From: an uncultured Oscillospiraceae bacterium
GTDB taxonomy: Bacteria; Bacillota; Clostridia; Oscillospirales; Oscillospiraceae
Assembly: GCA_900754515.1 (NCBI GenBank)
Contig: CAAEDD010000197.1
Location: 1-58,299, forward strand
Direction of reading: 5' to 3'
DNA: 58,299 nucleotides
Both the position numbers and the translations under genes were made by a program. Every line of letters starts with the position of its first letter. The stretch's first letter is position 1. Below the pieces are notes generated by a model that worked only from the letters and a program-made list of their open reading frames with translations, was not told where the DNA came from and did no database searches. Of this stretch, positions 162 to 25,127 are shown piece after piece.

Positions 162-746
162 TCAGCTATCCGGGTTTCTTTCGGCTGCTTTACCTGTAAT
201 CAATAAAAGGCATTCAAGAAACAGGCTGATCACACAAGGATAAAAAATCCTGTCCATGTCAAAAATAAGTCCGAGAATGGCGGCAGTAAAGATGATGAAT
301 GTAAATATTATAGATTTCTTTTTATATTCCTTTTTCTCCTCTTGCGTAAGCCGCTTTGCCTCAGTATCCAGAGGGCTCAACCATAAGATACATACGGCGC
401 TGAGAACAAGCATGACTAACGGCAGTGCCACACTGGAAAAAGCCATAAACAGTTTTATGCACACAACAGCAAGCAGCATCGCCAGCGAAGTGCACAGAGT
501 GCAAGTGCTTTCCTTTGAAGCATGTACTCCACCGGCATATCCCCTTATCAGGGAAAAAGCGACATAAAACAGTATGCTCTCAACTGCAACGCCCAACAAT
601 ATGCCGTAAAAGGCCGCAAGCAGGAGGAAAAAGATTTGAGAAAAGAGCATGAAAAAGCCGTAGATATATACTTCTCTGTCATCCTGCGTAATACTGCCGT
701 GAGGGAAAAGTGAATCTACGGCTTTTTCTGAGAGCCGGGAAATCAT
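162..746 (-). CDS. agrB: AgrB-family accessory gene regulator B (membrane cysteine endopeptidase that processes AgrD)
   Basis: 194-aa polytopic membrane protein. It carries the AgrB signature IRGYAGGVHASKESTC (catalytic His and Cys spacing as in S. aureus AgrB RRHAHGAHAPSSFWC) and a basic loop SPLDTEAKRLTQEEKKEYKKK. Its ATG overlaps the stop of a small Cys-containing ORF. Confidence 0.85.
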   Translation of the reverse strand: MISRLSEKAVDSLFPHGSITQDDREVYIYGFFMLFSQIFFLLLAAFYGILLGVAVESILFYVAFSLIRGYAGGVHASKESTCTLCTSLAMLLAVVCIKLFMAFSSVALPLVMLVLSAVCILWLSPLDTEAKRLTQEEKKEYKKKSIIFTFIIFTAAILGLIFDMDRIFYPCVISLFLECLLLITGKAAERNPDS

Positions 747-892
747 TTCTGGTGGTTCTTGAAACGGCTGAGGCTTGCGGGCGCTTTGGGCTGATAAATG
801 GCATAGCAGGTTGTTCTATTCGCGTCACGCTTCAAAGCGCTCTCAGCAGCAGCTTTTGCTGCCTTTGCGGCAAACATTTTTACGTTCTTCAT
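743..892 (-). CDS. agrD: AgrD-like autoinducing-peptide precursor (49 aa), absent from the ORF track
   Basis: Hand translation of the minus strand gives MKNVKMFAAKAAKAAAESALKRDANRTTCYAIYQPKAPASLSRFKNHQK. The RBS GGAGGTGAG lies 4 nt upstream of the ATG at 892. The stop TGA overlaps the agrB ATG (ATGA at 743-746). There is a single Cys followed by four residues, then a QPKAP tail. Confidence 0.7.
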   Translation of the reverse strand: MKNVKMFAAKAAKAAAESALKRDANRTTCYAIYQPKAPASLSRFKNHQK

Positions 893-952
893 CTATCTCA
901 CCTCCTCGGCCAGAAGTTTACCATAATCCGGGTTAAATTCAATGTACTTTGC

Positions 953-986
953 AAAAATGCAGAAAAAAACTGTAAAAATGCGGAAA
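953..986. promoter_or_regulatory. Candidate LytTR (AgrA-like) binding site: two 13-nt direct repeats with 21-bp phasing
   Basis: AAAAATGCAGAAA (953-965) and AAAAATGCGGAAA (974-986) match at 12/13 positions, with starts 21 bp apart. They sit in the divergent agrDB / xre-RR-HK intergenic region. Confidence 0.4.
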
Positions 987-1110
987 TTCATTGTTTGATA
1001 GATATGTAAATTTTTCTACGGATTATTAATTGTCTTATAGATATAATCTATATCACTTTGTTTATTTTGCAAAATTTGGATGATAACATACCCCCAAGTG
1101 GTGATGTTGA

Positions 1111-1434
1111 ATGAAATTGGACAAGAAGCTTATCGGCACACGGATCATGCAGCGGCGCAAGGCCTGCGGCTATACACAGGAGCAGCTGGCCGAGCTTGTG
1201 GGGTTATCCAAAAATCATATTTCCAGCGTTGAAAGAGGTGTCAGCGTACCTACTACTCAGTTCATTTTCAAGATATGTGAGATACTGGGTGAAACTCCGG
1301 ATTACTATCTCATAGGCAAGGCAACGGATAAGACCGACGAAATTACAGACATGATAAAAAGTCTGCCCCCCGATGCCCAGAAAATTGCCGGAAAATTGAT
1401 AGAAACTTATATAGACACCATCCGCAGTATTTGA
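1111..1434 (+). CDS. XRE-family (Cro/C1-type) helix-turn-helix transcriptional regulator
   Basis: The N-terminal HTH block GYTQEQLAELVGLSKNHISSVERG is typical of the HTH_XRE family. 107 aa. Confidence 0.85.
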   Translation: MKLDKKLIGTRIMQRRKACGYTQEQLAELVGLSKNHISSVERGVSVPTTQFIFKICEILGETPDYYLIGKATDKTDEITDMIKSLPPDAQKIAGKLIETYIDTIRSI

Positions 1435-1456
1435 CGGTGTTTGTCCAAAATGTTAG

Positions 1457-1501
1457 AATGAGAGCGCAGGAAAAGCAAATATCCGTGCGCTCTCATTTTT
1501 T
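1457..1501 (+). terminator. Strong intrinsic terminator between the xre gene and the response-regulator gene
   Basis: 12-bp perfect stem AATGAGAGCGCA / TGCGCTCTCATT, 17-nt loop, then a T-run. It ends about 27 nt before the RR start codon. Confidence 0.7.
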
Positions 1502-1527
1502 ATTTATAAATAGTTGGGGGGGATAAT

Positions 1528-2226
1528 ATGAGGATACTTATTTGCGACGATGAACCCTGCTATCTTGAGGAGCTGTATACCCACGTAAGGGAATATATGA
1601 AAAACCGCTTTATAGACTGCGAGATAGTAAAGACTACAGATCCTATGAGCGTTGCGGAGAGTGATGACAGGTTCGACCTGGCATTTCTGGACATACAGAT
1701 GAGCCGTCTTGACGGAATATCTCTGGCCAGGGAACTCAGGCGACGCAACAGCAAGCTTGCACTGTTCTTTGTCACTAATTATGATGAATACCAGGACGAT
1801 GCCATGGATCTCCGGGCCTTCCGGTATTTTGAAAAACCATTTAATGTAAACCGCCTGTATGCGGGGCTCGATAAGGCAATGGAATACATAGACGGGGCAT
1901 ATGTAGACATATTTATGAGCAGCAACGGCACCCAGCGCCGCATACTGGTTGACGACATCATGTATGTCATGCGGGATAACCGCCATGTGGTGATGGTCAC
2001 AGTCCACGGTAGTTTTATAACAAGGGAGAGTTTTGACGGCTGGTGCAGCAGGCTGCCGGCTCTGTTTTTCTATCAGGTGCACAACTCTTTTCTGGTAAAC
2101 CTGCATTATGTGATGACATACTCTTACTCCGAACTTGTCCTGACGGACGAAACACGGATATCCATAGCTTCCCGCAAGCAGGCAGCCTTTCGGAAATACT
2201 GGTTTGAGTATTTAAGGAGGAGATAG
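1528..2226 (+). CDS. LytTR-family response regulator (AgrA-like)
   Basis: Receiver domain (MRILICDDE..., DLAFLDIQM) plus a C-terminal LytTR-type DNA-binding region (ILVDDIMYV..., FFYQVHNSFLVNL). A G-rich RBS lies upstream. Confidence 0.9.
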   Translation: MRILICDDEPCYLEELYTHVREYMKNRFIDCEIVKTTDPMSVAESDDRFDLAFLDIQMSRLDGISLARELRRRNSKLALFFVTNYDEYQDDAMDLRAFRYFEKPFNVNRLYAGLDKAMEYIDGAYVDIFMSSNGTQRRILVDDIMYVMRDNRHVVMVTVHGSFITRESFDGWCSRLPALFFYQVHNSFLVNLHYVMTYSYSELVLTDETRISIASRKQAAFRKYWFEYLRRR

Positions 2227-2228
2227 GC

Positions 2229-3521
2229 GTGCTGAGTTTTGTATCCTCTTCTCTTGTATACTTTTTTGAAATGCTTATCTCATATATTGTGTTTTTGTCA
2301 ATATGGGAGAAGAAACACGGCACGCTAATTATACTTATAGTAGGCTTTGCTATTTATGAGTGCGGAGCAGTTATTAATCTTATTGGAGCGAACACAATAT
2401 GGATTAATTCATTGTTTTTTATTTTATCTACCTTTATTTTTGCAGTCTCATGCTTTCATATTTCATACCGGGAAGCAGCCGTATATACAATACTCATGAA
2501 CATTTTTGTAGCTGCTTTTGAGTTTGCCACAATATTTGCTGTGTCTGCATTATCTGGCGCCTCAATTACCGGTTACAATTATGATCAATCATTGTTGCTG
2601 ATGGAAGCGTCAATCAGCAAAACCCTATACCTGATTTCCTGCATTATTCTTGTCCGTCTGCGCCGCCGCGGCACATCACTTGACAAGGTTCCACGGAGCT
2701 TCTATTTTTTCCCGATTTGTATTCTCTTTTCTCTGGTGTCCTTCTGGTATATAAGTGCCCACGAGTCCCTGAACCATTTCGATCAGATACTGCTCTCAGT
2801 TACCAGCATCGTGCTTTTCGGGGCCACGGTTCTGCTGTTTATCTCCTATCAGCACGGCATTAAAAGGGACATAGAATATCTTCAGATAAAAAGCGAGAAT
2901 GACCGGCTTCAGCTGGAGAAAGCATACTACGATATTCTTGAGCGGCAAAACCAGCAGCTGATGATATACAGTCATGATACCAAAAACCATCTGGCTGCCA
3001 TACGAAGTCTCAGCACCGACCCGGGCATAAATGCCTACATACAAAAATTGCTGGACCAGCTGAGCAGCTATACCAATAGCTGTCACAGCGGCAACAAAAT
3101 ACTGGACGTAATAATCAACAAATACGTAACCGAATGTGAGCTTCGCGGCGTAGCCTTTGATTATGACATCAAGTCATGCAATCTGGGCAGTGTGGAGGAT
3201 ACAGATCTTGTATCAATTCTCGGGAACCTGATGGATAACGCCCTCACAGCCGCTGAGAAGTCCCGCGAGAAACATATATTATTGGAGACCACTGTCAGGA
3301 ATTCCTACAGCGTTATAATTATAAGCAACAGCTGTGACCAGAGGCCGGAAGCCAGAGAGGCGCATCTGCTGACCACAAAAGAAGAAAAGCATCTGCATGG
3401 CTTCGGTCTGAAGAGCGTTAAAAAAACCCTGAAGAAATATCAGGGAGACTATAGCTGGGACTATTATGAAAGCAGGCATGTCTTTGTTGTCACCGTGATG
3501 ATAGGCAACGCCGGCAGATGA
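2229..3521 (+). CDS. AgrC-like (HPK10-type) membrane sensor histidine kinase
   Basis: GTG start 6 nt after the RBS AAGGAGGAG. Multi-TM N-terminus. H-box YSHDTKNHLAAI, N-box GNLMDNALTAA, G-box HGFGLKSVKK. Confidence 0.85.
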   Translation: MLSFVSSSLVYFFEMLISYIVFLSIWEKKHGTLIILIVGFAIYECGAVINLIGANTIWINSLFFILSTFIFAVSCFHISYREAAVYTILMNIFVAAFEFATIFAVSALSGASITGYNYDQSLLLMEASISKTLYLISCIILVRLRRRGTSLDKVPRSFYFFPICILFSLVSFWYISAHESLNHFDQILLSVTSIVLFGATVLLFISYQHGIKRDIEYLQIKSENDRLQLEKAYYDILERQNQQLMIYSHDTKNHLAAIRSLSTDPGINAYIQKLLDQLSSYTNSCHSGNKILDVIINKYVTECELRGVAFDYDIKSCNLGSVEDTDLVSILGNLMDNALTAAEKSREKHILLETTVRNSYSVIIISNSCDQRPEAREAHLLTTKEEKHLHGFGLKSVKKTLKKYQGDYSWDYYESRHVFVVTVMIGNAGR

Positions 3522-3775: not shown

Positions 3776-4405
3776 TCAAAGCTTTTCCGATAACTCCCTG
3801 AGCAGTCTCTCGGCTTTATCCGTATTGAATATACCGCAGGCACAGGGTTCAGACAGCTTTACTGCCGCTTTTCTCGGCGTAGTAATACCCTTGCGGATAT
3901 CTTCAATCATCTTATTGACCAGATTTGCAGATACCATGGCATGGCCGCACATGGTGGTAATCTCAAGCACACTTTCCGGCGGCAGTTTCGACGTGTCTCC
4001 CCATATGCCAAGGGTCAGGTCCACACTGTGCCGCTGAATTCCAGAACTTTTGGCACAGCAGTCCACATCATCCACCAGTCCGGATACTACCACAGAATAC
4101 CCATAGTCAGCCTCTTTGAGGGCCTTCATAACTTCGATAAGGGTATCCCTGTCTTTGTACACCGCATGGAGCATGGGTGCATCCTCAGACACATTTTCCA
4201 TTAGTTCCTCAAAACTGTTGGTGACAAGAGTGCCTATCTTCAGTCCGCCCATATTTACCGGATTAAAGGAATACAGCAACTTCATATACTTTCTGTACAC
4301 GTTTACGCAGTCTTGATTGTTAATGCCTCTGGCCGGCATTATAAGTACCACGTAGTCATCCGTTTTCCCTGACTCTGTTTTTATGCGATGAAGGGTATGC
4401 GACAT
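3776..4405 (-). CDS. Unassigned Cys/His-motif protein (module copy 1, small partner)
   Basis: 209 aa starting MSHTLHR. Blocks shared with the paralog at 19413-20045: LKEAD.G.S.VVSGL, a CC pair, LG[IV]WG, TTMCGH[AG]M and C-x-C-x-IFNT. Its ATG overlaps the upstream stop (TAATG). Confidence 0.7.
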   Translation of the reverse strand: MSHTLHRIKTESGKTDDYVVLIMPARGINNQDCVNVYRKYMKLLYSFNPVNMGGLKIGTLVTNSFEELMENVSEDAPMLHAVYKDRDTLIEVMKALKEADYGYSVVVSGLVDDVDCCAKSSGIQRHSVDLTLGIWGDTSKLPPESVLEITTMCGHAMVSANLVNKMIEDIRKGITTPRKAAVKLSEPCACGIFNTDKAERLLRELSEKL

Positions 4406-5154
4406 TAAACTCCCTCCTTTACTCTTTCCTCATATCTGGGCCTTCCCAGTCCCAAATTCGTCTTTGCAGAGGTTCTGTCTACATTGATACCCAGCTCATC
4501 CACAATAGCCCTAGCGGGTATGGTATCCGTATCCTCGTCAACACGGCAGATTATGCACAGACTGAATACCGTGTTTACTTCATGTGACACCTTTTCGAGA
4601 GCTTCCAACACGGCTCTTATTCTGTCGGTGGGACAGGTAAACTCTATAATACCAGACAGTATGCGTTCGCCCAGCACCGATGGATCCAACTTTCCCGTCT
4701 TTTTATCTACGATTAGGGATGTGACAGGGTTGTTCTCCTCAAATTTCAAAGCAAAGGGAGCAACTGCCATTGCCACCTTTTCCAGATCCGCAAAGGAAGA
4801 TGTCACGCTGGGCCTACCCATCTCTACTGCAAAAGACACGTAGTCCAAGCTATGTACTACACCGGTCACGTCGTTTGTCTTGACCTCCTCAGTGCCACGT
4901 CCCATATGTTTTTGAACAGTATTCTCATGCTTTCCAAAAGGATCGCTGAAAGCCTGTCTGTACACTCTTGGGGGTGACAGCTTGACATTATATATGGCGT
5001 CTCTGGGACATTTGGCACAGGTTCTGCATACACCGCACTCCACACACAGCTCCAGCTCAATGGTAATAGCCCCATCTTTTTCCTTTATCGCTCCGCAGGG
5101 ACAATACGGTATGCATTTTCTGCATCTAATGCATTTGCTCTCGTCTATATACAT
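4405..5154 (-). CDS. 2x[4Fe-4S] ferredoxin-domain protein with an unassigned ~170-aa C-terminal domain (module copy 1, large partner)
   Basis: N-terminal motifs CIRCRKCIPYCP and CVECGVCRTCAKCP. Then conserved blocks GRGTEEVKTNDVT and EMGRP shared with the paralog at 20050-20760. Confidence 0.8.
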   Translation of the reverse strand: MYIDESKCIRCRKCIPYCPCGAIKEKDGAITIELELCVECGVCRTCAKCPRDAIYNVKLSPPRVYRQAFSDPFGKHENTVQKHMGRGTEEVKTNDVTGVVHSLDYVSFAVEMGRPSVTSSFADLEKVAMAVAPFALKFEENNPVTSLIVDKKTGKLDPSVLGERILSGIIEFTCPTDRIRAVLEALEKVSHEVNTVFSLCIICRVDEDTDTIPARAIVDELGINVDRTSAKTNLGLGRPRYEERVKEGV

Positions 5155-5177
5155 CCTGTTCTCCTATACCTAGTAGT

Positions 5178-6080
5178 TTATTTGCATATGGCTTTTAGGA
5201 CAGCGTAACGCTCATCCACCTGCCGCTGGATATCGTCCAGCTGCTTACGGCTGAGTTTTCTGAACTTTCCAATGTCGGTTGTAAACTCCTGTACCGATAT
5301 GGGCGCATTGTTTATATAATTGAGTTTAAAGCCATCACTGTCTTTTTCCCATAGCGGGAACATATTTGATCTTACAGCCTTCTTGGATATCTGTATTGTT
5401 TGATCCTGCGGAAAGCTCCAGCCGGTCGGGCAGGGGCTGAACACGTGGAGATAAGCAAAACCCCGCTTGCTGGCCGCCAGTCCTTTCTGCACTTTCTCTA
5501 CAAAGTCTTTCATATATCCAGGCGTAGCCGCAGCACAGTATTCGATGCCATGCATAGCCATAATCAACGGCAGATATTTCTGCCCCTGCTGCTTTCCTGA
5601 GATACGGCTGCCCAGAGGAGTGGTGGAGGTTCGGGACCCCTCTGTAGTGGTGGAGCTGCGCTGATAACCGGTGTTCATGTAACCTTCGTTGTCATAGCAG
5701 ACATACAGCATTTTTTCTCCTCGCTCAGCTGCTCCGGACAGGCTTTGGAAACCGCAATCGGCAGTGGCCCCGTCTCCGGCAACCGCAACAATATTTACAT
5801 CCCCCCGGCCATAACGTTCATATATATGGCTTATCCCAGTCATAAAGGATGCAGTATTATCCAGCAACGGAATATGTACAGGTATTTTCATTCCGCTATC
5901 GTAGCTCCATCCCACGACTCCACTACCTGCCATACAGCCTGGGGGTACACAGACAATAGTATTCTCGCCCGCTATTTGCAGCACTCTGCGTAAAACCAGT
6001 TCTCCTCCGCAGCCCTGACATGCAGATATGCCCGGTGATACCATGTCAGCACGGTCTCTTATTATATCGATGTAACTCAT
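5178..6080 (-). CDS. 2-oxoacid:ferredoxin oxidoreductase, beta (TPP-binding) subunit
   Basis: CQGCGG near the N-terminus and the TPP-binding motif GDGATADCGFQSL...NEGYMNTG. Last of four adjacent OFOR subunit genes. Confidence 0.9.
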   Translation of the reverse strand: MSYIDIIRDRADMVSPGISACQGCGGELVLRRVLQIAGENTIVCVPPGCMAGSGVVGWSYDSGMKIPVHIPLLDNTASFMTGISHIYERYGRGDVNIVAVAGDGATADCGFQSLSGAAERGEKMLYVCYDNEGYMNTGYQRSSTTTEGSRTSTTPLGSRISGKQQGQKYLPLIMAMHGIEYCAAATPGYMKDFVEKVQKGLAASKRGFAYLHVFSPCPTGWSFPQDQTIQISKKAVRSNMFPLWEKDSDGFKLNYINNAPISVQEFTTDIGKFRKLSRKQLDDIQRQVDERYAVLKAICK

Positions 6081-6081
6081 T

Positions 6082-7275
6082 TTACGCCCCTTCCTGCTCT
6101 TTCATTAGCCAGCGTGTCTCCTTCTCACCTGGAAAACCTTTAACGCTGTCCAGATACATGAGAGTATCCGTCAGATCTTTTACGGATATGTCTGCTCCGC
6201 CTAGGCCGCCGATAGTTGAAAAGCTGGCCTGCTTCTCTCCCAGACTTGAAATGGCCGACAAAGTCTCCACATACATGGATCCCTTTCCCCAGCCAAAGCT
6301 GACACTGCGATCCACCACAGTAAAGGCTTTCTTTCCTCTCAGTACCTGAGCTATCCTCTCGCTGGGGAACGGGCGGTAGAAACGTATTCTTACAAGCCCT
6401 GCTTTCACGCCCTGTGCTCTGACAATATCAACAGCATCCTTTCCTGCTCCTGTCATACCGCCCATTGTAACAATAACTACCTCTGCGTCTTCGCAAAGGT
6501 ACTCCTCTATCATGCCGCCATAAGAGCGGCCGAACACTGAGGCAAATTTCCCGTCAACTTCGTCTATAACCTGTTTCGCCCTCTCCATGGCATTCAGGTG
6601 GCTTTTGCGGTAGTGCATCAGCAGTTCGCCCGGAGTCATCGGATCCAGAGCCAGAGGATGCCTTGGATCCAGAATCGCCTGGTGATAAATACCATGGGCA
6701 GGCAGAACGTCATCCACTTCCTCCTGATCCGGAATTACTACGCCGGATGTCAGGTGTGAGCTGTAGAAGCCGTCATAGCAGACATTTACAGGCAGGCATA
6801 CCTCCGGATGTTCCGCTATCATATAGCCCTGTATTATCATGTCAACGATCTCCTGATTGTCGTCGCAGAACATCTGTATCCAACCAGCCTCCCGTACGGA
6901 GATGGCATCCTGTTGGCCGCTCCAAATGGTCTCCGGTGAGGTCATCTCTCTCGTTGCTATAGCCATCACCATAGGCAGGCGCAGTGTAGACATACGAAAA
7001 TATGGCTCATACATCAGTGCAAGGCCCTGGGCGCTGGTGGCAGTAAACACCCTGCCCCCGGCAGCAGCCGCTCCCTGCACAACGCTCATCGCACTATGCT
7101 CCGACTCAACCTGAACCATTTCCGAGTCTATCTCACCATTGTGTACTTTCTCTGCCAGATACTCCACTACAGATGACTGAGGGGTGATTGGATATGCGGA
7201 AATGAGATCAATGCGGCACCTTGCCGCCGCTTCGGCAGCCGCATAGTTGCCTGTCAGCACTTTCAGGCTTCCCAT
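6082..7275 (-). CDS. 2-oxoacid:ferredoxin oxidoreductase, alpha subunit
   Basis: The N-terminus LTGNYAAAEAAARCRIDLISAYPITPQS is typical of the PorA/VorA/KorA family. It ends 1 nt before the beta-subunit start. Confidence 0.9.
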   Translation of the reverse strand: MGSLKVLTGNYAAAEAAARCRIDLISAYPITPQSSVVEYLAEKVHNGEIDSEMVQVESEHSAMSVVQGAAAAGGRVFTATSAQGLALMYEPYFRMSTLRLPMVMAIATREMTSPETIWSGQQDAISVREAGWIQMFCDDNQEIVDMIIQGYMIAEHPEVCLPVNVCYDGFYSSHLTSGVVIPDQEEVDDVLPAHGIYHQAILDPRHPLALDPMTPGELLMHYRKSHLNAMERAKQVIDEVDGKFASVFGRSYGGMIEEYLCEDAEVVIVTMGGMTGAGKDAVDIVRAQGVKAGLVRIRFYRPFPSERIAQVLRGKKAFTVVDRSVSFGWGKGSMYVETLSAISSLGEKQASFSTIGGLGGADISVKDLTDTLMYLDSVKGFPGEKETRWLMKEQEGA

Positions 7276-7278
7276 GAC

Positions 7279-7542
7279 TTATTTCTCCTCCTTTATCATT
7301 GAGATGGCCTTTCTGGGGCATTCAACCGCACAGATACCGCATCCTTTGCAGTATGTATAATCTATATAATATCCCTGCCCTTCAGAATAGCGGGGGGAAT
7401 TTACCGGGCAGTAACTCAGACATATGCCGCAATTTGTGCACTTAGTCTTGTCTATCACCGGTCTGTATACCCGCCAGCTCGCAGTGTCAAGGACATACAT
7501 TCCCCTATTTCCAACAGGGGTCACAAATTCACGATCATACAT
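7279..7542 (-). CDS. 2-oxoacid:ferredoxin oxidoreductase, delta (2x[4Fe-4S]) subunit
   Basis: 87 aa with CTNCGICLSYCP and CKGCGICAVECP. Confidence 0.9.
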   Translation of the reverse strand: MYDREFVTPVGNRGMYVLDTASWRVYRPVIDKTKCTNCGICLSYCPVNSPRYSEGQGYYIDYTYCKGCGICAVECPRKAISMIKEEK

Positions 7543-8089
7543 TTTCTTTCCCTCCCCTCAGATAATTAACACTTTCGTAGGCTCTCTGCGCTGCCAACCG
7601 GTTGTCAGTGCCGAATTTATTCTCTATCTCCTCAAATAGCAGCTCTCTGTCCACCAGTCCCACAGTTCTGGCAAAAGCCCCCAGCATGGCTGTATTTGGC
7701 AGATTTTTCCCTAAAATATCCTCCGCAATGCCGCTGGCATCCACTGTCGCTACTATTCCGGCGCAATCGGGAACCATAAGCTCTTCCAAATTATGTACGC
7801 TGTTTATCAGCACCATTCCGCCTTTCTTTAAGCCAGAATATGTCTCCTTCATACCAACCAAAGTATCGTCCATGATAACTATTATGTCCGGCTCGTATAT
7901 CTGGGTCTTACGTCTGATTTGAGTTTCGCTCAGGCGAAGATAGCCGTACACCGGTGACCCCTTTCTTTCTACGCCAAAAAACGGAATAAATTGGCCGTGT
8001 ATCCCGCCCATTACGGCAGCCTTCACGATCATCTGAGAGGCTTTGACAACTCCCTGCCCGCCTCTGCCGTGCAACCGGATTTCTTTCAT
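7535..8089 (-). CDS. 2-oxoacid:ferredoxin oxidoreductase, gamma subunit
   Basis: MKEIRLHGRGGQGVV is a typical gamma-subunit start. The start is moved to the ATG at 8089, which has the RBS AAGGAG 6 nt upstream. It overlaps the delta gene by 8 nt. Confidence 0.9.
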   Translation of the reverse strand: MKEIRLHGRGGQGVVKASQMIVKAAVMGGIHGQFIPFFGVERKGSPVYGYLRLSETQIRRKTQIYEPDIIVIMDDTLVGMKETYSGLKKGGMVLINSVHNLEELMVPDCAGIVATVDASGIAEDILGKNLPNTAMLGAFARTVGLVDRELLFEEIENKFGTDNRLAAQRAYESVNYLRGGKENV

Positions 8090-8146
8090 TGTCTTCTCCT
8101 TTATACCCTTTGTTAACGCAGCCAATTACATATAGTCTGCAATTAT

Positions 8147-9700
8147 CTACAGCATTTTTCCTGCCTGGAAAATGCGTTTATCCATTTCACGTAGTTCCGG
8201 GGATATCTCAGGTCTGAAGTCCATACATGCAAGGATATCTTTTTCCAGGTTCACTCCCGGAGCAATCTCTGTCAGCACAAGGCCGGCATCACCCAAAGTA
8301 AACACCGCCCGCTCAGTTATATACATTACCTTCTGTCGCTTTTTACGGGCCTGCCAGCTTGAAAATGTTATCTGTTCTACGCGTTTTCGAAATTTTCTGC
8401 TCTTTCCTTCTGAGCATATTCTGAGCTTCCCATCCACGACCTCAGTCTCAAGGCCGGAAGCAGTAAAGGTACTCATAAAACAGACAACCGGGCTGCTTTG
8501 CACGATATTGATAAATCCTCCTGGACCCGTGGTGCGTTTTCCAAAGCGCGATACATTTACATTTCCCTGTTCGTCTATCTCTCCCGCGCCGAGGAAGGAC
8601 ATGTCCAGACCTCCCCCGTCATAAAAATTGAAGTTGTCTTCAAGTCTATATATTACTTGTGGATTCACCGCAGCTCCAAATCCGGGGCCGCTCACAGGTA
8701 CGCCGCCCAGGGGACCGCTCTCTACTGAAAGCAGCAGCTGTGAGAATATTCCCTCCTCGGCCGCAACTGTCGCCACAGCTTCAGGTATGCCAATACCAAG
8801 ATTTACAACATTTCCGCGCTGCAGTTCGAGCACAGCTCGTCTGCCACAAATTTTTCTGTTATTAAGCGGCATTGGCTTAAAAGCATCGGTTTCTTTGATT
8901 GCATACCCACAGAGTTCCGGCCGAAATGCCGGACAATCATAGCCCGGTGTACACTGACCGTCCAAGTCTAAAACAATAAAATCCACAAGGCTGTTGTGCA
9001 AAAGTATATCCCTTGGGGAAAGCTTTCCTTCAGCAAGCCGGTCAACCTGGGCTATTACTATACCCCCACAGGCTTTCACAGCAAGAGCCATTTCTAGCTG
9101 TTCAGCTGTCATCGGGTCATCTCTGGCTGATAGATTTCCGTCGCTGTCAGCAGTTCCTATGCGCATTATGCAGGCATCCAGGGTAGGAGTCCTGTACAGC
9201 AAATATTCCTTTCCGTCCAGCTCTGTCAGTTCTGCGACCTTGCCGCCTGACCGGGCAGCCAAATTGTTCAGAGCGCCGCCTTCCACACGCGGATCACAAA
9301 AGCTTCCAAGTCCCACAGGGCTTATAACCGCGGGCTTTCCTGAGGCCGCTGCGTGCAGGAGATCAGTAACAAGTCCCAGGGGCAGGGCAAAGGCCCGCAT
9401 TCGGTTTTCGGCTATCATTTTCCCGAAGCTGAGAGCCATACCCACATGGGCAGCCCTGACCTCGGATATCAACCCATCCATTGCCAGGATATTCATGCCC
9501 CTGCTGCCTGTTGTAAGGTCTCCTGGCAATATGCCCGAAAACACGCTGAGATTTCGCGGTCTTCCTGTTCTTTCATATCTCCGGGCTATCGCGTGAAAAA
9601 TGATGTCCGCACCAAGCCATCCGCCAAAACCGCATATGCCAACAGACATACCGTCGTGAAAAAGCTCCGCAGCCTTCTCAGCATCAATAAACTGAGCCAT
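8147..9700 (-). CDS. Family I acyl-CoA:acetate/propionate CoA-transferase (Pct/YdiF type, fused subunits)
   Basis: 517 aa, alignable from memory with C. propionicum Pct: ...SVESGPLGGVP (ESG catalytic-Glu motif), FYDGGGLD, GNVNVSRFG, GGFINI, YITERAVF. Confidence 0.85.
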   Translation of the reverse strand: MAQFIDAEKAAELFHDGMSVGICGFGGWLGADIIFHAIARRYERTGRPRNLSVFSGILPGDLTTGSRGMNILAMDGLISEVRAAHVGMALSFGKMIAENRMRAFALPLGLVTDLLHAAASGKPAVISPVGLGSFCDPRVEGGALNNLAARSGGKVAELTELDGKEYLLYRTPTLDACIMRIGTADSDGNLSARDDPMTAEQLEMALAVKACGGIVIAQVDRLAEGKLSPRDILLHNSLVDFIVLDLDGQCTPGYDCPAFRPELCGYAIKETDAFKPMPLNNRKICGRRAVLELQRGNVVNLGIGIPEAVATVAAEEGIFSQLLLSVESGPLGGVPVSGPGFGAAVNPQVIYRLEDNFNFYDGGGLDMSFLGAGEIDEQGNVNVSRFGKRTTGPGGFINIVQSSPVVCFMSTFTASGLETEVVDGKLRICSEGKSRKFRKRVEQITFSSWQARKKRQKVMYITERAVFTLGDAGLVLTEIAPGVNLEKDILACMDFRPEISPELREMDKRIFQAGKML

Positions 9701-9732
9701 AGGATTTCCCCTTTATTCCGGCATTGTTTAAA

Positions 9733-10785
9733 CTATAAAACATATACTACTAAATAGAAAATTTGAGGAAAGAGCAAAACCACACTCATCAGTCTGAACA
9801 TTTGCAGTAACGCCAGAGCCGGGCTGTTAATTCCCATATCCGCAGCTATAAAACTCATTTCTACTGCCCCTGCCGGGGCGAGAAACAGCATTGCTTCTTT
9901 AAAACGGAATTTAAATACCTTGCTTATCATATATCCGCCAAAAATACAAAGCAGAAGATATCCGGCGCAAAGTATTCCCGCCGGCAAGATTAGCTGCGGT
10001 AAATTTCTAATTTGTTCAGGCCCCACCCTTATTCCAATGCAGCAACCGCATAGAACCTGGGCAGCATTTCGAAGCCAGTCCGGCATAGCCCCTGCTTTCC
10101 CATATATATTCAGCATTGCCACCGCCAGCATGGAAAAGGATATGGTTCCTGCTGCTACACCGCTTATGCGTCCAAGGAGTCCGGCTGCACTTCCTATACA
10201 TAGAGCCGGTATGTATGGAATAAAAGCGGTTCTGTGTGTTTTTCCCATTGCTTTTAGCGCAGTGCTTTCTTCTTTTGCAACTCTTGCAGCGCCACCTTTT
10301 CCGCTCTTGTCTGCCAGGCAGATAAGCCAAGGCAAACAGCCAAGGCCAAAAATAACCCGTATGAATTGCAGTATAGTCACCGCAGCCACATCTGCGCCCA
10401 TGTCCATAGCTATAAGGGGTGCATCAGATATCCCTCCGGGCATGGCACTGAACAGGCAGCTTATCAGGCTCAGCTGCGTTAAATTACTTATAAGTAATGC
10501 CGCTCCAATGTTTAAGGCCAGAAAACCAAAAAATATCACTACAAACGGCCCTGTTATTCTTGGCAGAAGGCGCAGCTCGTCTTTTGTAATCATGCCTCCC
10601 AGATATGCACCTGAAATAATCTGTGACAGCACGCGGGCCTGAGGCCATACATTTGCCTTGCCGCTGGCAATATTCAACGCCGCCACGGCAACTACGGCCC
10701 CCAGCAGCAGTCCCGCCGGGACTCTGATTTTTTGAAACAGCAGGCCACCGAGCAACGCTGCAGCCATCGTAATCGCTATCCACAT
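9733..10785 (-). CDS. AbrB-duplication family polytopic membrane protein (putative transporter)
   Basis: About 350 aa and very hydrophobic, with two internally similar halves (GG.L...I..P.G.LLG / AAG.LG.....AG). The start is taken at the ATG at 10785, because the ORF-track start is TTG. Confidence 0.65.
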   Translation of the reverse strand: MWIAITMAAALLGGLLFQKIRVPAGLLLGAVVAVAALNIASGKANVWPQARVLSQIISGAYLGGMITKDELRLLPRITGPFVVIFFGFLALNIGAALLISNLTQLSLISCLFSAMPGGISDAPLIAMDMGADVAAVTILQFIRVIFGLGCLPWLICLADKSGKGGAARVAKEESTALKAMGKTHRTAFIPYIPALCIGSAAGLLGRISGVAAGTISFSMLAVAMLNIYGKAGAMPDWLRNAAQVLCGCCIGIRVGPEQIRNLPQLILPAGILCAGYLLLCIFGGYMISKVFKFRFKEAMLFLAPAGAVEMSFIAADMGINSPALALLQMFRLMSVVLLFPQIFYLVVYVL

Positions 10786-10949
10786 AATATCTGACCTCAA
10801 CGCGCGGTTTTCTCCATTGGGACAACTTGCTGCACAACCAAATCAGCAAAAAATCTGTTGCTTACGGCCGGTACATTCAACCGAAACGCCACATATTTTG
10901 GCAAACAGTATTTGCTGTTTTTTCCCCATGGAATTCCGTCTGTAATATT

Positions 10950-11897
10950 TTAGACCAGGTGGCATGCCACTTCATGGCCGGGAGCACATTCTTTCAGGCA
11001 AGGCGCTTGCTGATAGCAGATATCCTTCGCCATCCAGCAACGGTTTGCAAAGCGGCAACCAGGTTTTGGATTTACAGGGCTTGGCACATCTCCCTTGAGC
11101 AATATGCGCTCGGGCCTATGATGCTGATATTTTGCAATAGGTATTGCCGACAACAAAGCCTTAGTGTAGGGATGCTGAGGGTTTTTGAATAGCTCATGAG
11201 ATGGAGATACCTCCACAATCTTTCCAAGATACATAACCACGATACGGTTGCTGATATGCCTCACAACGCTGAGGTCGTGAGATACAAACAGATAGGTTAG
11301 ATGCATGGTGTCCTGAAGGTCTTGAAGAAGATTCAGAATCTGGGCTTGTATTGATACATCCAGAGACGAAACCGGCTCGTCACATACAATAAATTCCGGA
11401 TTCAGCGCAAGAGCGCGGATAATTCCTACACGCTGGCGGCGACCGCCGTCCAACTCATGGGGATAGCTGTTGTACAGCCGACGGCTCACACCGCCCTTGC
11501 TCATCAGTTCCAGGACATACTCGTTTATATTCTTGTGAGGAACTACCTTATTTATGACAAGAGGCTCGGCAATGATCTGCCCTATAGTTTTTCTGGGATC
11601 AAGGCAGGAATATGGGTCCTGAAATATCATCTGCATTTTTTTGCGCATCGCCCGCATCTGAGAAGCTCGATACTTGAGAATATCCTCACCCTCATAGAGT
11701 ACTTCCCCTTCGGTGTGGGGAGTGAGGCGTAGCAAGGTTCTGCCCACGGTAGACTTTCCGCAGCCGCTTTCACCCACAAGTCCCAGAGTTTCTCCTTTGT
11801 TGATGTAAAAGCTCACATCGTCAACCGCGTGCAGATATCCCGCAGGAACCTTAAAATACTTTTTCAGATTTTTGACTTCTATAAGCTTTTCAGGCAT
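10950..11897 (-). CDS. Oligo/dipeptide ABC transporter ATP-binding protein (OppF/DppF type)
   Basis: Walker A GESGCGKST, signature LDGGRRQR-type, Walker B FIVCDEP, and a Cys-rich C-terminal Opp-type extension. Confidence 0.9.
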   Translation of the reverse strand: MPEKLIEVKNLKKYFKVPAGYLHAVDDVSFYINKGETLGLVGESGCGKSTVGRTLLRLTPHTEGEVLYEGEDILKYRASQMRAMRKKMQMIFQDPYSCLDPRKTIGQIIAEPLVINKVVPHKNINEYVLELMSKGGVSRRLYNSYPHELDGGRRQRVGIIRALALNPEFIVCDEPVSSLDVSIQAQILNLLQDLQDTMHLTYLFVSHDLSVVRHISNRIVVMYLGKIVEVSPSHELFKNPQHPYTKALLSAIPIAKYQHHRPERILLKGDVPSPVNPKPGCRFANRCWMAKDICYQQAPCLKECAPGHEVACHLV

Positions 11898-12873
11898 TCT
11901 CTACACCCCCCGCATATAAGTGGCATCTTACGGTATGGTTATCTCCTATTTTTATCTCATCCGGCTCTTTTTGAGAACATATCTCCATAGCATAGTCACA
12001 TCTCTTGCAGAACTTGCAGCCCTCAGGCAGCCTTGTGGGATCAGGCATAGCACCCCTGATCACATAGAGCCGCTGGGAGTCCTCTGATTCAATATCTGGT
12101 ATGCATCCAAACAGTCCTTTAGTGTAGGGATGGGCAGGTTGAGTAAAGATGGATTTCAGGTCGCCGTATTCAATCACACTGCCTGCGTAGATAACCGCTA
12201 CATAATCGGCAATATCCGCCACAACTCCAAGGGCGTGGGTAATGAATATAGTGGATGTCTGATATTTCTCCTTGAGCCCCTTCATCAGATCCAGTATTTG
12301 CGCCTGGATAGTGACATCCAGGGCTGTGGTTGGCTCATCGGCAATAAGCAGGCTTGGATTGCAGGCCAAGCCCATGGCTATACATACCCGCTGTTTCATC
12401 CCGCCGGAAAATTCATGAGGATAGTTTTTCAGTCTTTCCTTGGGTATGCCCACTATCTCAAGCATCTCTCCGGCTTTTTCCATAGCCTCGCTCTTGCTGA
12501 GATTTTGGTGCTGCATAATGACTCCGGCGATCTGATGTCCGACCGTATATACCGGATTCAATGAAGTCATTGGATTCTGAAATATCATGGCGATTTTATT
12601 GCCACGGTATTCCTGCAGTTCCTTTTTACCGGCCTTGAGCAGATCTTTCCCCTCAAATAGTATCTCGCCAGAAGTAATAACTCCCGGCGGATTGGGAATC
12701 AAGCCCATAATAGCAAGAGCTGTGGTTGTTTTGCCGGCACCGGTTTCCCCCACCAGGCCTATAGTCTTGCCCTTTGGCAGTTCGAGGTTAAGGTTGTTAA
12801 TAGCTTTTACAACCCCATCAAAGGTTCTAAACTCAATGCTCAGGTTCTTGATCTGGAGCAGATTTTCGCTCAT
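11890..12873 (-). CDS. Oligo/dipeptide ABC transporter ATP-binding protein (OppD/DppD type)
   Basis: Walker [10 protein letters not shown], signature FSGGMKQR, Walker [13 protein letters not shown], and a Cys-rich C-terminus. It overlaps the OppF-type gene by 8 nt. Confidence 0.9.
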
Positions 12874-12914
12874 ATAATTTCACCTACCAATTGAATAGTG
12901 AAGTCTGGAGGCGC

Positions 12915-14285
12915 TTAATCCAGATACTCATGGAAAATATTGGCCATGAGCTTTATAGCCGTCAGATATTGTTCTATACTTATGTTTTCATCTGGAGCAT
13001 GGGTGTTGGCCGTAGAGAAGGGTGCGCCCAAACCGATAATGAATACATCTCCGCCTAAATACTGGGGGAACATGCACATGGGCCCGGAACCATCCAGCAG
13101 CGGCCACACCACAGGAGCCCGACCATACACCTTGGTTGCCAGCCTGGCAGACAGTTTGACAAGCTCATGGTTCGGAGAACACTGGTATGGCTCATTATTT
13201 GCTTTTACCTTTACATCGAAGTGGCCAAATGGTGACTTTTCAATAAAATCGATCAGCTTTTCCTTGGCCTGGGCTATGCTCATTCCTTTGACCAAACGCA
13301 TGTCCAGGCGCACCCAGGCTTCGCACGGAACTATTGTCTTTCCTCGTTCTCCTGCCCATCCACCCTTTATGCCGGATATATTGCAGGTTGGAGTATAGAT
13401 GAGCCTTTTTATGACCTCAACCGGATCGTCGCTTCCTCCAAGTATTTCAGGTATGGCATACTCTTTCTTAAACTGCTCCAGATCATAGGGAATATCCCGT
13501 ATCAGATTCAGTTCCTCTTCCGAGGGAGCTTTCACATTGTCGGTATAGCCGTCTATAGTAATTTCATCCAGAGTGTTTTGCATGGAGTTAAGCAAACGTA
13601 CCAGATCCCAGATGGCATTTGGTATCAGCGGAGCATGACCAGAATGGACATCCCTTTTAGCGCGTTTACAGGAAATTTCCACTTCCATAAGTCCTTTGTT
13701 GCCAAGGTAAAATTGTGGACGTCCGCTTTCATGCACACCTCTGTCGCACAGCAGGCAAGCATCACTGCTCAGCACATCTGAGTATGTAGAAAAGAATTTT
13801 GCCAGATTAGGACTGCCAATCTCCTCTTCACCTTCAAAGAAAAACTTCAGCCCGGCAGGAATCTTGCCCGTCACATTTTTCAGCACTTCCGCCGCCTTTA
13901 TATTTGCCCAGAGATTGCCCTTGTCGTCAGTAGCCCCTCTGGCATAAATCATCCCGTCTCGTATCTCGGCTGAAAAAGGATCTGAAGTCCACCTGTCTAC
14001 CGGGTCCGGAGACTGTACATCGTAGTGACCGTAGACCACCAACTGCTTATTTGCTCTTTCTGTTTTGGAGACGCCGTATATTGCCGGAAAAGCACCTTCC
14101 AATTCCAGGATTCTGTGATCCATCCCCAGTGTTTTTAGCTCCCTGCTCAGCATATCGGTGCATTCTTCCATTCCGATATTCTCTGTGGATATGCTTGGCT
14201 GCCTCAAGAAATTCTGCAGGCTGGATACCAATTCATCGGCATGGGAATCTACATAGTCCGAAATCTGTTTCATCAATTCACTCAT
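12915..14285 (-). CDS. M20-family metallopeptidase (dipeptidase, CNDP/DUG1-like), copy 1
   Basis: VYGHYDVQSPDPVDRWTSDPF...IYARGATDDKG and FFEGEEEIGS metal-ligand blocks. Paralog of the adjacent gene. Confidence 0.85.
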   Translation of the reverse strand: MSELMKQISDYVDSHADELVSSLQNFLRQPSISTENIGMEECTDMLSRELKTLGMDHRILELEGAFPAIYGVSKTERANKQLVVYGHYDVQSPDPVDRWTSDPFSAEIRDGMIYARGATDDKGNLWANIKAAEVLKNVTGKIPAGLKFFFEGEEEIGSPNLAKFFSTYSDVLSSDACLLCDRGVHESGRPQFYLGNKGLMEVEISCKRAKRDVHSGHAPLIPNAIWDLVRLLNSMQNTLDEITIDGYTDNVKAPSEEELNLIRDIPYDLEQFKKEYAIPEILGGSDDPVEVIKRLIYTPTCNISGIKGGWAGERGKTIVPCEAWVRLDMRLVKGMSIAQAKEKLIDFIEKSPFGHFDVKVKANNEPYQCSPNHELVKLSARLATKVYGRAPVVWPLLDGSGPMCMFPQYLGGDVFIIGLGAPFSTANTHAPDENISIEQYLTAIKLMANIFHEYLD

Positions 14286-14344
14286 GGATTTTCTCCCTTC
14301 TTTGTCCTTGAATCTGCGCTCTGTTCAAGCACAGTGCCACAATG

Positions 14345-15700: not shown

Positions 15701-15737
15701 TTTTTACCTCCCATTGGATCCGCATCTTGTTCCGGCT

Positions 15738-16679: not shown

Positions 16680-16693
16680 ATCTGCTTCCTCCT

Positions 16694-17614: not shown

Positions 17615-17693
17615 TTTTTCACCCCGTGATTTTTCTGTAGACGGCGGGCAGCTTCAGCCGGTTTCCCATCCGCATTCGCGCCGTTGACAAAAG

Positions 17694-17726
17694 GCGGCCT
17701 GACAAATTATGTTTTTGCCAGGCCGC
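17694..17726 (-). terminator. Possible intra-operon attenuating hairpin after the binding-protein gene
   Basis: 8-bp stem GCGGCCTG / CAGGCCGC with a 17-nt loop. On the minus strand it is followed by CTTTTGT. It lies in the 164-nt gap between the binding-protein and permease genes. Confidence 0.35.
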
Positions 17727-17778
17727 TGGAATTTCTACCTTGATTGATTATTCAATGACCTGTATTTAATGCTGCCGC

Positions 17779-19323: not shown

Positions 19324-19412
19324 GTTATTTCTCCTTTCTTTTCTTTACAGTTTTCTAAACAGCCTTAATCCGCTGGAAAACTTCATATGTTTGAGTCCGC
19401 CGCTTTGCCGGG

Positions 19413-20045: not shown

Positions 20046-20049
20046 GCTG

Positions 20050-24597: not shown

Positions 24598-24622
24598 ACT
24601 TGCACTTACCTCTAATTTCAGT

Positions 24623-24925
24623 CTATCTCATCAGCTTTTGTAAGGTGGCCACCAATTCCTCTATGGTTTCGTCCTTACCGGCCCGTATATCTTCTGCCAC
24701 GCAGGTACGTATATGCTGGCTCAGCAGCTCCTTGCTGAAGGCGTTGAGAGCCGCCGTGGCCGCCGAGACCTGAGAAAGTATATCCGGGCAGTAGGCACTT
24801 TTTTCCACCATGCCCCTGATACCCCTGATTTGTCCCTCTATACGGTTCAGGCGGTTTATAAGGCTTTTATACTCCTCTTCACTGCGGTATTTTTTCCGCT
24901 CATGGCAGCATTCATGCTCCGGCAT
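24623..24925 (-). CDS. csoR: CsoR-family copper-sensing transcriptional repressor
   Basis: [20 protein letters not shown]...YCPDILSQ core. The start is reassigned to the ATG at 24925 (RBS GGGGGAG 4 nt upstream), because the longer ORF-track N-terminus would read through the operator palindromes. Confidence 0.9.
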
Positions 24926-24945
24926 ATTGCTCCCCCTTGTCTTTG

Positions 24946-24992: not shown

Positions 24993-25127
24993 TTGTCAAG
25001 ATCTTTTTGCTGCATGCTGATGCATAAACTCTCCCGTTAAATGAATACTTTTTGCAATCGCTGGTTTGTTTATACACAATACCCCACATTGTATGGCAAA
25101 TGTGCTAAATTTCCCACGGAAAAGCGA

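Follow-up and report, generated by a model that had tools for sequence, protein, structure and literature searches.

The contig CAAEDD010000197.1 of an uncultured Oscillospiraceae bacterium (assembly GCA_900754515.1), analysed here over its whole 58,299 nucleotides and called the window in what follows, raises the question of what is done by two adjacent genes at the end of a long operon, one encoding a ferredoxin-domain protein (B) and the other a small Cys/His protein (S), of which a diverged second copy is found at 19413-20760. The original prediction took B and S for a heteromeric redox enzyme, which could supply the step from amino acid to 2-oxoacid in an operon importing peptides. The redox pair holds up well in the present analysis, whereas no specific support was obtained for an amino-acid substrate. 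Instead, B-S is read here as a heteromeric Fe-S oxidoreductase that would form a 2-oxoacid from an imported 2-substituted carboxylate, the likeliest substrate being a 2-hydroxy acid; we give this reading a probability of about 0.42.

All the sequence features ascribed to the two-gene module are indeed present, on the minus strand of the window (Table 1). The announced overlap between the genes of the first copy, B1 and S1, can be read directly: plus-strand positions 4403-4407 are CATTA, i.e., TAATG on the coding strand, with base 4405 common to the TAA stop of B1 and the ATG of S1, and an AAGGAGG in the final B1 codons stands 7 nt ahead of that ATG (AAGGAGG-GAGTTTA-ATG). At the junction of the second copy, B2 and S2, a 4-nt gap separates the stop from the ATG, and an AAAGGAG overlaps the final B2 codons, its last G lying inside the GAG that precedes TAA. 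The longest open reading frame (ORF) of S2 opens at an upstream TTG, and family conservation puts its start at MSHTLHR. These two copies are the sole B-S pairs in the window, according to a hidden Markov model (HMM) scan of its six-frame translation.

The N-terminal part of B is a genuine member of the Fer4 family. The motifs CIRCRKCIPYCP (residues 8-19) and CVECGVCRTCAKCP (residues 37-50) of B1 follow the patterns CxxCxxCxxxCP and CxxCxxCx(n)CP, in which the eight cluster cysteines are conserved at 98-100% among 206 B sequences, and Fer4 (PF00037) scores 28.0 bits in B1 and 39.8 bits in B2 against a Pfam cut-off of 21.1, the other Pfam matches of B1 being Fer4 variants. Moreover, in the AlphaFold2 (AF2) model of B1 (predicted local distance difference test, pLDDT, 87.3; predicted TM-score, pTM, 0.85) residues 1-57 match the clostridial 2[4Fe-4S] ferredoxins 1fdn, 1fca and 9g03_E with TMt of 0.84-0.90 and root-mean-square deviations of 1.1-1.7 A over 55-57 residues (Foldseek against PDB). 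The approximately 190 residues that follow belong, as had been anticipated, to no named family: neither Pfam, NCBIfam nor PDB gives an assignment beyond the Fer4 part, the NCBIfam matches of B1 are restricted to residues 1-60 and all under cut-off, PDB sequence searches with B return ferredoxins only, and Foldseek finds no PDB match of the B model at E<0.001, the part beyond residue 57 showing just a weak ACT-like resemblance (TM below 0.3). This unnamed part has invariant stretches of its own, starting with the segment GRGTEEVKTNDVT (residues 85-97), where G85, R86, G87, T88, E90, K92 and T93 are 100% conserved, followed by EMGRPS (residues 111-116) and by a C-terminal tail with K231, G235 and G237 at 100% and N233 at 99%. 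Altogether, the invariant charged and polar set comprises R63, R66, S70, G85-R-G-T-E-E90, K92, T93, E111, G113-R-P115, P143, E171, K231, N233, G235 and G237.

Public databases name B '4Fe-4S binding protein', 'DUF362 domain-containing', 'PreA' or 'PorD', and the last three names mirror the Fer4 domain alone. PorD/KorD and the clostridial ferredoxins share the fold and cluster motifs of B residues 1-57, whereas B continues for some 190 residues whose invariant pattern is specific to its family; B1 reaches 29.8 bits for TIGR02179 against a cut-off of 60.05, and the operon's own delta subunit (7279-7542) reaches 91.8. The DUF362 name, carried in NCBI and UniRef by the Hungatella ortholog P0243, finds no match in P0243, B1 or B2 even at E<=10. 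Homology between B and S was also considered and discarded (hhalign probability 5%).

The small subunit S is in no described family or solved fold. Single sequences of both copies and the profile gave no match in Pfam, NCBIfam or PDB sequences, where the best E-values were 0.41 (phmmer) and 0.05 (hmmsearch), and the 31 members of the S alignment A1 gave no consistent one; public databases label S 'hypothetical protein'. The AF2 model of S1 is confident (pLDDT 91.7, pTM 0.87) and is devoid of a fold match in PDB, the best Foldseek results (E 0.02, TM <=0.29) being generic alpha-beta sandwiches of ferredoxin-like, ACT and S6 type. Thus, the profile and fold searches with which the prediction could be checked, through Pfam, NCBIfam, PDB and Foldseek, yielded no full-length match to a characterised family for either protein, and literature searches with motif strings and gene context found no description of the B-S family.

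Conservation among 443 S sequences reveals where the relevant residues of this subunit may be found. Positions invariant at 97-100% are R7, D17, H126, C153-G154-H155, C188, C190 and N194, together with the glycines G102, G109 and G136. The six cysteines plus a histidine originally proposed as a metal or Fe-S site are only partly retained, since six cysteines are common to the two paralogues of the window, whereas across the family C153, C188 and C190 with H155 form the only invariant Cys/His cluster (C117 is conserved at 69%, C116 at 17% and C33 at 15%). A second singular element is the strictly N-terminal motif M-[ST]-H-[TS]-L-H-R, with M1 at 97%, Ser or Thr as residue 2 in 438 of the 443 sequences, H3 at 96%, H6 at 97% and R7 at 99%, which starts at residue 1 in 406 of them. 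Nearly all S relatives are 200-230 aa long and start no more than a few residues away from residue 1 (903 clusters), and none of the 150 best representatives bears an added N-terminal domain, a few starting 3-29 residues upstream. The same 150 representatives contain no B-S fusion, even though changing one base where stop and start overlap would be enough to produce one, which argues that S needs a free N-terminus. The S fusions detected (P0297 and P0299) extend the C-terminus only, and P0299, a metagenomic protein of 411 aa, naturally joins S to a C-terminal CooF/DmsB-type Fer4_11 polyferredoxin. An N-terminal Ser/Thr-His fixed in this way, with a second residue that permits Met removal, recalls the 'M-S-H-T...' start of RcnR/InrS, ATCUN sites and the MHE of HypA, although S does not have the CsoR/RcnR fold. 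RcnR uses N-terminal Ni/Co ligands, and the motif of S may equally be a catalytic N-terminal nucleophile.

How widely the two genes occur, and whether they occur together, was addressed through an HMMER profile scan of 1.84 billion representatives (E<=1e-3), which gave at least 903 S clusters at 50% clustering; 1569 relatives were counted at 90% clustering, and at least 566 stretches encode an S relative when one genome per GTDB species is taken. Carriers among the matches listed include Dehalococcoidia, Anaerolineae, many Bacillota (Hungatella, Oscillospiraceae, Peptococcaceae, Desulfosporosinus, Halanaerobium, Negativicutes), Desulfobacterota, Syntrophales, NC10, Aminicenantes, Bathyarchaeota and Nitrososphaeria. 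The plasmid collection gave no match. Pairing and neighbourhoods were counted in the best 80 of the at least 566 loci, which hold 97 S genes. The HMM places B immediately ahead of S, in the same orientation, in 87 of these, and tblastn adds one more, which gives 88 of the 92 assessable cases, as five of the remaining genes are at contig edges and four are solitary. The solitary genes are all from Dehalococcoidia, and in one of these loci (L010) the gene without an adjacent B is a second S. Gaps between B and S are mostly from -21 to +30 nt (87 pairs).

The two subunits also diverge together. Pairwise identity matrices of B and S, calculated for 94 distinct pairs, correlate with r=0.83, compared with a maximum of 0.08 in 500 permutations, and at loci with several pairs each B and its partner S lead to one and the same orthologous pair at another locus (as in L063/L068 and L069/L076). 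Both subunits of copy 2 have their nearest relatives at the same locus, L088 (B2 is 81% identical to its B), and those of copy 1 at two closely related loci, L001 for S1 and L081 for B1. Correlated divergence and matching orthologous pairs indicate that B-S duplicates and diverges as a unit. Two or three tandem pairs are found at five loci, among them L028, where three are followed by a single TctCBA transporter; such arrays suggest paralogous specialisation or hetero-oligomers.

Covariation points to the regions where both proteins might meet. In a crude analysis of inter-protein mutual information, limited to 94 phylogenetically related pairs, 45 of the top 100 position pairs involve B residues 61-100 and 13 involve B residues 221-240, and the top pair, B232-S125, is flanked by the invariant K231 and N233 of B and H126 of S. 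Moreover, the rare change N233C in B co-occurs with G191H in S in 3 of the 4 pairs carrying it, copy 2 of the window included, so that B2 has a Cys at a position conserved at 99% and S2 a His within its C-H-C-H. These residues hint that the B tail may touch the Cys site of S. The invariant stretches of B (71-100 and 231-249) and of S (1-10) coincide with the least confident segments of the AF2 monomers: block pLDDT values are 73, 60 and 70 across B1 71-100 and 56-77 in the tail, and confidence is likewise low for S1 residues 1-10. Covariation and invariant low-confidence segments would fit a composite active site at the B-S interface, and are suggestive only.

A redox role for the pair is proposed because of the Fer4 domain, the S-Fer4_11 fusion P0299 and the company that B-S keeps, which includes AOR (aldehyde:ferredoxin oxidoreductase) and OFOR (2-oxoacid:ferredoxin oxidoreductase) genes and a mini-CooS/CooF cluster. 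In Negativicutes and Peptococcaceae, a sigma54 activator (PrpR_N/sigma54) precedes B-S, a CooF-like Fer4_11 protein, a 482-aa protein of the Prismane/CODH family and an FAD/NAD(P) oxidoreductase, an order seen in Thermosinus carboxydivorans (AAWL01000003, 7258-11912; S is WP_007288587), with B-S directly upstream of cooF, and at five other loci. The 482-aa Thermosinus protein (WP_007288589) is the published 'mini-CooS' (PMC3328121, PMC8776680), a clade G Ni-CODH-like protein of enigmatic function; in the passages of three CODH papers that were searched for mini-CooS, clade G and Thermosinus, nothing is said of the two genes ahead of it. The five-gene order with B-S is the same in Thermosinus and Peptococcaceae, whereas most B-S pairs have no CODH nearby. 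The heteromeric redox pair of the original prediction is therefore supported by pairing, co-divergence, the 2x[4Fe-4S] domain and CooF-type polyferredoxins as fusions or neighbours.

Which substrate such an enzyme would act on is suggested by the other neighbours, examined through neighbour clustering and Pfam scans of representatives. A carboxylate transporter (TctABC, TRAP, CitMHS or 2HCT) stands within five genes of B-S in 31 of 70 loci, and AOR or OFOR does so in 13. TctA occurs in 19 loci, TctC in 16, TctB in 11 and TRAP DctPQM in 6-7, and 2HCT and CitMHS/MatC are also represented. Minimal units of LysR, B-S and CitMHS, or of LysR, TRAP and B-S, support the same substrate class. Other neighbours are Ldh_2, PdxA-like, LarA-like and GlcD proteins, LutA/LutB-like proteins with PEP synthase, RraA and HpcH aldolases, ALS-like thiamine pyrophosphate enzymes, family-III CoA-transferases and amidohydrolases. 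No single conserved partner enzyme emerges from this list, as neighbours vary by clade. As a side observation, B-S has at two loci (L007 and L070) genes for AllF/AllG (oxamate carbamoyltransferase), M42/M20 peptidases and amidohydrolases as neighbours, and at two others (L090 and L091) AllF/AllG alone are nearby, on the opposite strand; a link to ureide or N-heterocycle catabolism is possible in some clades.

The most informative contexts are those of the relatives of copy 1. Its orthologs at 78-82% identity are arranged as IclR, then CoA-transferase, CitMHS/MatC, OFOR gamma-delta-alpha-beta and B-S; in Hungatella and other Clostridia the order is IclR, then 2HCT, B-S, OFOR, Buk and Ptb; and relatives at 55% identity, from metagenome contigs with no assigned taxonomy, show AsnC, then OFOR, 2HCT, B-S, a Buk-like gene and Ptb. 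This conserved unit of regulator, 2HCT/CitMHS carrier, B-S, OFOR and Ptb-Buk or CoA-transferase characterises an S1-like clade from Clostridia and from uncultured-metagenome contigs, the closest named relative of the latter being a Pseudodesulfovibrio metagenome-assembled genome. Within this unit, enzymes can be named for all steps that lead from uptake to substrate-level phosphorylation but one, the formation of a 2-oxoacid from the imported acid, and the transporter is often a 2HCT carrier; a 2-hydroxy-acid oxidoreductase is therefore favoured. The earlier suggestion that the module feeds OFOR is thus plausible, as no other candidate for making a 2-oxoacid is found there.

A parallel with the luo operon of Desulfovibrio, where PFOR, a lactate permease, two dimeric NAD-independent lactate dehydrogenases, Pta and Ack are co-transcribed (PMC4481167), leads likewise to a 2-hydroxy-acid oxidoreductase. 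The luo dehydrogenases of Desulfovibrio vulgaris, LutABC and LldEFG are multi-subunit Fe-S proteins encoded amid permease, OFOR and phosphotransacylase/kinase genes (PMC4481167), in which a two-cluster ferredoxin-type domain sits on one subunit and the 2-oxoacid is delivered to OFOR. Unlike them, B and S have no LUD, CCG or FAD-oxidase domain in Pfam or NCBIfam, and S has no PDB fold match. Direct homology was rejected, as hhalign gave 1.7% (alignment A1) and 24% (alignment A2, over the Fer4 stretch only) against a LutB-like protein. B-S would thus resemble, by analogy, known pairs of electron-transfer and catalytic subunits such as LutABC, the luo dehydrogenases and TtdAB, the catalytic parts being unrelated.

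According to the favoured reading, the N-terminal 2x[4Fe-4S] domain of B would act as an electron wire to ferredoxin or ferredoxin-type partner enzymes, and the active site would lie at the B-S interface. B would supply its invariant Arg/Lys/Glu-rich loops (R63, R66, GRGTEE-x-KT, E111-x-GRP, E171, K231-x-N-x-G-x-G), suited to carboxylate binding, and S its free N-terminus ([ST]2-H3-x-x-H6-R7), D17, H126 and N194, together with a Cys3-His site (C153-x-H155, C188-x-C190) that may bind an Fe-S cluster or other metal. The 2-oxoacid product would pass to the neighbouring OFOR to give acyl-CoA, with ATP or CoA regained via Ptb-Buk or CoA-transferase; the short Buk/Ptb-type genes are a hint that the acyl-CoA formed is C3-C5 or branched. 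B-S would then correspond to the NAD-independent lactate dehydrogenases encoded by luo, though with no flavin motif. Pairing, co-evolution, cluster motifs, the pattern of conservation and the gene contexts are seen directly in the data, whereas the physical complex with its shared active site is inferred, as are the identity of the metal, the substrate class and the direction of electron flow.

Several observations weigh against this reading. Neither a flavin nor an NAD motif, nor any other signature of a hydride acceptor, was recognised in B-S, which leaves the 2-hydroxy-acid chemistry unexplained, and 2-hydroxy-acid oxidation, at about -190 mV, is ill-suited to low-potential ferredoxin as acceptor. 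Many B-S loci already hold 2-hydroxy-acid dehydrogenases or racemases (Ldh_2, 2-Hacid_dh, GlcD, LutA/B-like, LarA), so that a further dehydrogenase would be partly redundant there. Contexts are, besides, heterogeneous, with AOR, mini-CooS, AllF/AllG and amidohydrolases among them; the Cys3-His site of S could be a structural zinc site; and the covariation behind a composite site comes from few and related pairs.

The first of the alternatives is a ferredoxin-dependent reductase acting as electron sink, which we regard as unlikely. B-S would spend ferredoxin reduced by OFOR, AOR or mini-CooS on an imported carboxylate, either by reducing the C=C bond of acids of the fumarate, aconitate or mesaconate type or by reductive dehydroxylation in the manner of IspH, where a 3-Cys cluster leaves one iron site open. 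The 2x[4Fe-4S] input domain is of low potential, the adjacency to ferredoxin-reducing OFOR, AOR and mini-CooS/CooF is recurrent, and self-sufficient units of transporter and B-S are what would be expected for an imported electron acceptor. The Cys/His set of S also has a bearing here: the C-x-C plus C-x-H arrangement resembles the ligands of mitoNEET CDGSH, 4-hydroxybutyryl-CoA dehydratase and IspH, all of which depend on ferredoxin-type electron supply, and just three invariant Cys plus His are found in S, as in clusters with substrate-binding iron. IspH has such a cluster, and the ligands of that of 4-hydroxybutyryl-CoA dehydratase are 3 Cys plus His. These proteins differ from S, however, in ligand order and spacing, and no HMM or fold relationship connects them; S was specifically discarded as a CDGSH/mitoNEET protein, as it has no Pfam match and its ligand order is reversed (C-G-H, ~33 residues, C-x-C). 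Furthermore, B and S lack homology or fold similarity to any known reductase, and a reductase would leave the source of the 2-oxoacid unexplained in the cluster of OFOR, transporter, B-S and Ptb-Buk, precisely the step that the favoured oxidoreductase would fill.

This same step could also be filled by an Fe-S hydro-lyase analogous and not homologous to TtdAB or L-serine dehydratase, a possibility that appears rather improbable. The enzyme would obtain a 2-oxoacid from a 2,3-dihydroxy or 3-hydroxy-2-amino acid, and the role of the ferredoxin domain would be to maintain the catalytic cluster in a reduced or repaired state. A likeness is seen in the two small co-translated subunits, with three conserved cysteines in one and an ACT-like domain in the other, and in the gene unit with a divergent LysR and a carboxylate transporter, which mirrors the order ttdR-ttdAB-ttdT of the ttd operon; the orthologs of copy 2 are good examples of it, with nothing but a LysR gene diverging from B-S-CitMHS at 78% identity and LysR diverging from DctPQM-B-S at 62%, and S2 orthologs 62-88% identical in LysR/B-S/CitMHS or TRAP/B-S units. 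At 56% identity, orthologs of copy 2 lie between Ldh_2 and other 2-hydroxy-acid dehydrogenases, beside OFOR and Ack/PTAC genes. The product of a hydro-lyase would feed OFOR, the three invariant cysteines of S would fit an aconitase-type cluster, and the C-terminal part of B is weakly ACT-like, as is the beta subunit of serine dehydratase. Nevertheless, TtdAB and L-serine dehydratase show no sequence or fold similarity to B-S (no SDH_alpha, SDH_beta or fumarase match at E<=1 in Pfam and NCBIfam), known Fe-S hydro-lyases carry no 2x[4Fe-4S] ferredoxin domain and are unlinked to polyferredoxins or FAD/NAD(P) oxidoreductases, and the CooF-type polyferredoxin, fused or adjacent, together with the FAD/NAD(P) oxidoreductase, points to net electron transfer.

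The amino-acid step of the original prediction, a deaminating ferredoxin-linked oxidoreductase that would feed OFOR with 2-oxoacids from peptide-derived amino acids, has to be judged from the layout of the window. Genes from 3776 to 20760 all have one orientation and follow the order B2-S2, peptide-type ABC transporter with two M20 hydrolases, AbrB-duplication protein, CoA-transferase, OFOR and B1-S1, without any aminotransferase or amino-acid dehydrogenase among the genes between the two copies; the gene content is therefore as described, the argument from a pathway hole is the same that supports the 2-hydroxy-acid enzyme, and some other loci hold amidohydrolases, M42/M20 peptidases or Liv-type ABC systems. 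However, the ABC and M20 genes are peculiar to the window and accompany the orthologs of neither copy, so that peptide uptake was rejected as a conserved context of B-S, and the operon does not appear to be a single ancestral unit. The arrangement looks like two joined modules, a copy-2 unit with its transporter slot taken by the peptide ABC and M20 genes, and a copy-1 unit with an AbrB-type membrane protein in place of CitMHS/2HCT, although in 2HCT-type clusters the carrier is placed elsewhere than in the slot of that protein. Outside the window the transporters are carboxylate carriers (2HCT, CitMHS/MatC, TctABC or TTT, TRAP) and the neighbours 2-hydroxy- and 2-oxo-acid enzymes, and aminotransferases may sit elsewhere in the genome. 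A deaminating enzyme thus seems hardly probable. Least probable of all is a non-catalytic accessory for electron transfer, redox sensing or maturation of OFOR, AOR or mini-CooS, which would account for varied enzyme neighbours whose common trait is ferredoxin dependence and for the weak ACT-like small-molecule-binding folds of B and S, but not for units holding just a transporter and a regulator with B-S, up to three tandem paralogous pairs by one TctCBA transporter, or the dense set of invariant residues, polar and charged, of the kind that active sites typically have.

B-S may represent an unrecognised class of metalloenzyme, with a catalytic subunit of new fold, an N-terminal [ST]-His...His and a Cys3-His Fe-S or metal centre, a built-in ferredoxin and flavin-independent redox chemistry on 2-hydroxy or related carboxylates; this is put forward tentatively, at somewhat less than even odds, and it is just as tentative that its chemistry or cofactor site would be categorically new.

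Table 1. Positions in the window of the two B-S pairs, of their conserved segments and of the surrounding genes.
Feature	Position	Strand	Basis or remark
B1, ferredoxin-domain subunit, 249 aa	4405-5154	minus	ORF; Fer4 PF00037; AF2 model
S1, small subunit, 209 aa, putative catalytic/metal-binding partner	3776-4405	minus	ORF; AF2 model
B2, ferredoxin-domain paralogue, 236 aa, 40% identical to B1	20050-20760	minus	ORF
S2, small-subunit paralogue, 210 aa, 38% identical to S1	19413-20045	minus	ORF and family-placed start
Coupling signal: AAGGAGG, 7 nt, TAATG stop/start overlap	4403-4419	minus	read from sequence
B1 residues 1-57, 2x[4Fe-4S] domain	4984-5154	minus	C8, C11, C14, C18; C37, C40, C43, C49
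B1 residues 85-97, invariant loop GRGTEE-x-KT-NDVT	4864-4902	minus	
B1 residues 231-249, conserved C-terminal tail K-T-N-x-G-L-G	4408-4464	minus	
S1 residues 1-7, strictly N-terminal motif M-S-H-T-L-H-R	4385-4405	minus	
S1 residues 152-155, M-C-G-H	3941-3952	minus	C153, G154, H155 ~100% (443 sequences)
S1 residues 188-194, C-x-C-G-x-F-N	3824-3844	minus	C188 99%, C190 100%, N194 99%
OFOR, four subunits, directly upstream of B1	5178-8125	minus	NCBIfam
OFOR beta	5178-6080	minus	
OFOR alpha	6082-7275	minus	
OFOR delta	7279-7542	minus	
OFOR gamma	7535-8125	minus	
Family-I CoA-transferase	8147-9700	minus	
AbrB-duplication membrane protein	9733-10800	minus	in slot of CitMHS of copy-1 orthologs (L081-L087)
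Peptide/opine-type ABC transporter and M20 block, downstream of S2	10950-19323	minus	not conserved beside B-S elsewhere
Two M20 dipeptidase-like hydrolases	12915-15700	minus	
ABC binding protein	17779-19323	minus	with two permeases, two ATPases
LysR-type regulator, divergent from B2	20973-21923	plus	also beside copy-2 orthologs
AgrB	162-746	minus	
LytTR response regulator	1528-2226		
GHKL histidine kinase	2229-3521		
OYE-FMN + FAD/NAD(P) enzyme, 691 aa, 2-enoate / 2,4-dienoyl-CoA reductase type	25268-27343	plus	
Monomeric [FeFe]-hydrogenase with ferredoxin domains, 504 aa	28110-29624	minus	

Regarding the remaining genes of the window, the gamma and delta subunits of OFOR are above the NCBIfam cut-offs (PorC_KorC, 175 bits; PorD_KorD, 91.8 bits), and for alpha and beta the best NCBIfam scores are PadG/PadI and PorA, under equivalog cut-offs. 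The [FeFe]-hydrogenase is a possible sink for OFOR-reduced ferredoxin. An Agr-like quorum-sensing locus at 162-3521 is convergent with the operon end, and at 22099-25015 on the minus strand a P-type copper ATPase (two HMA domains) and, after it, a CsoR-like repressor were recognised by eye in the translations alone.

Should B-S be an enzyme, an annotation hole would be filled in hundreds of genomes of anaerobes, including gut Clostridia (Hungatella, Oscillospiraceae), Dehalococcoidia, Peptococcaceae, syntrophs, sulfate reducers and Bathyarchaeota, whose operons cover carboxylate uptake, the oxidation of 2-oxoacids and substrate-level phosphorylation and lack just the first conversion step. It would also offer as a target for study a compact ~50 kDa heterodimer whose ligand set is unusual and whose structure has no precedent. 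Two unnamed genes are moreover tied to the unexplained mini-CooS cluster, and B-S may be, if this holds true, the functional partner of mini-CooS. The presence of up to three pairs per locus beside TTT or TRAP transporters suggests a family of substrate-specific enzymes, which would improve models of organic-acid turnover in gut and subsurface communities. Altogether, the pair would represent, if the proposal is true, a widespread and overlooked entry from organic-acid uptake into the ferredoxin-dependent metabolism of 2-oxoacids, aldehydes and CO in anaerobic bacteria and archaea.

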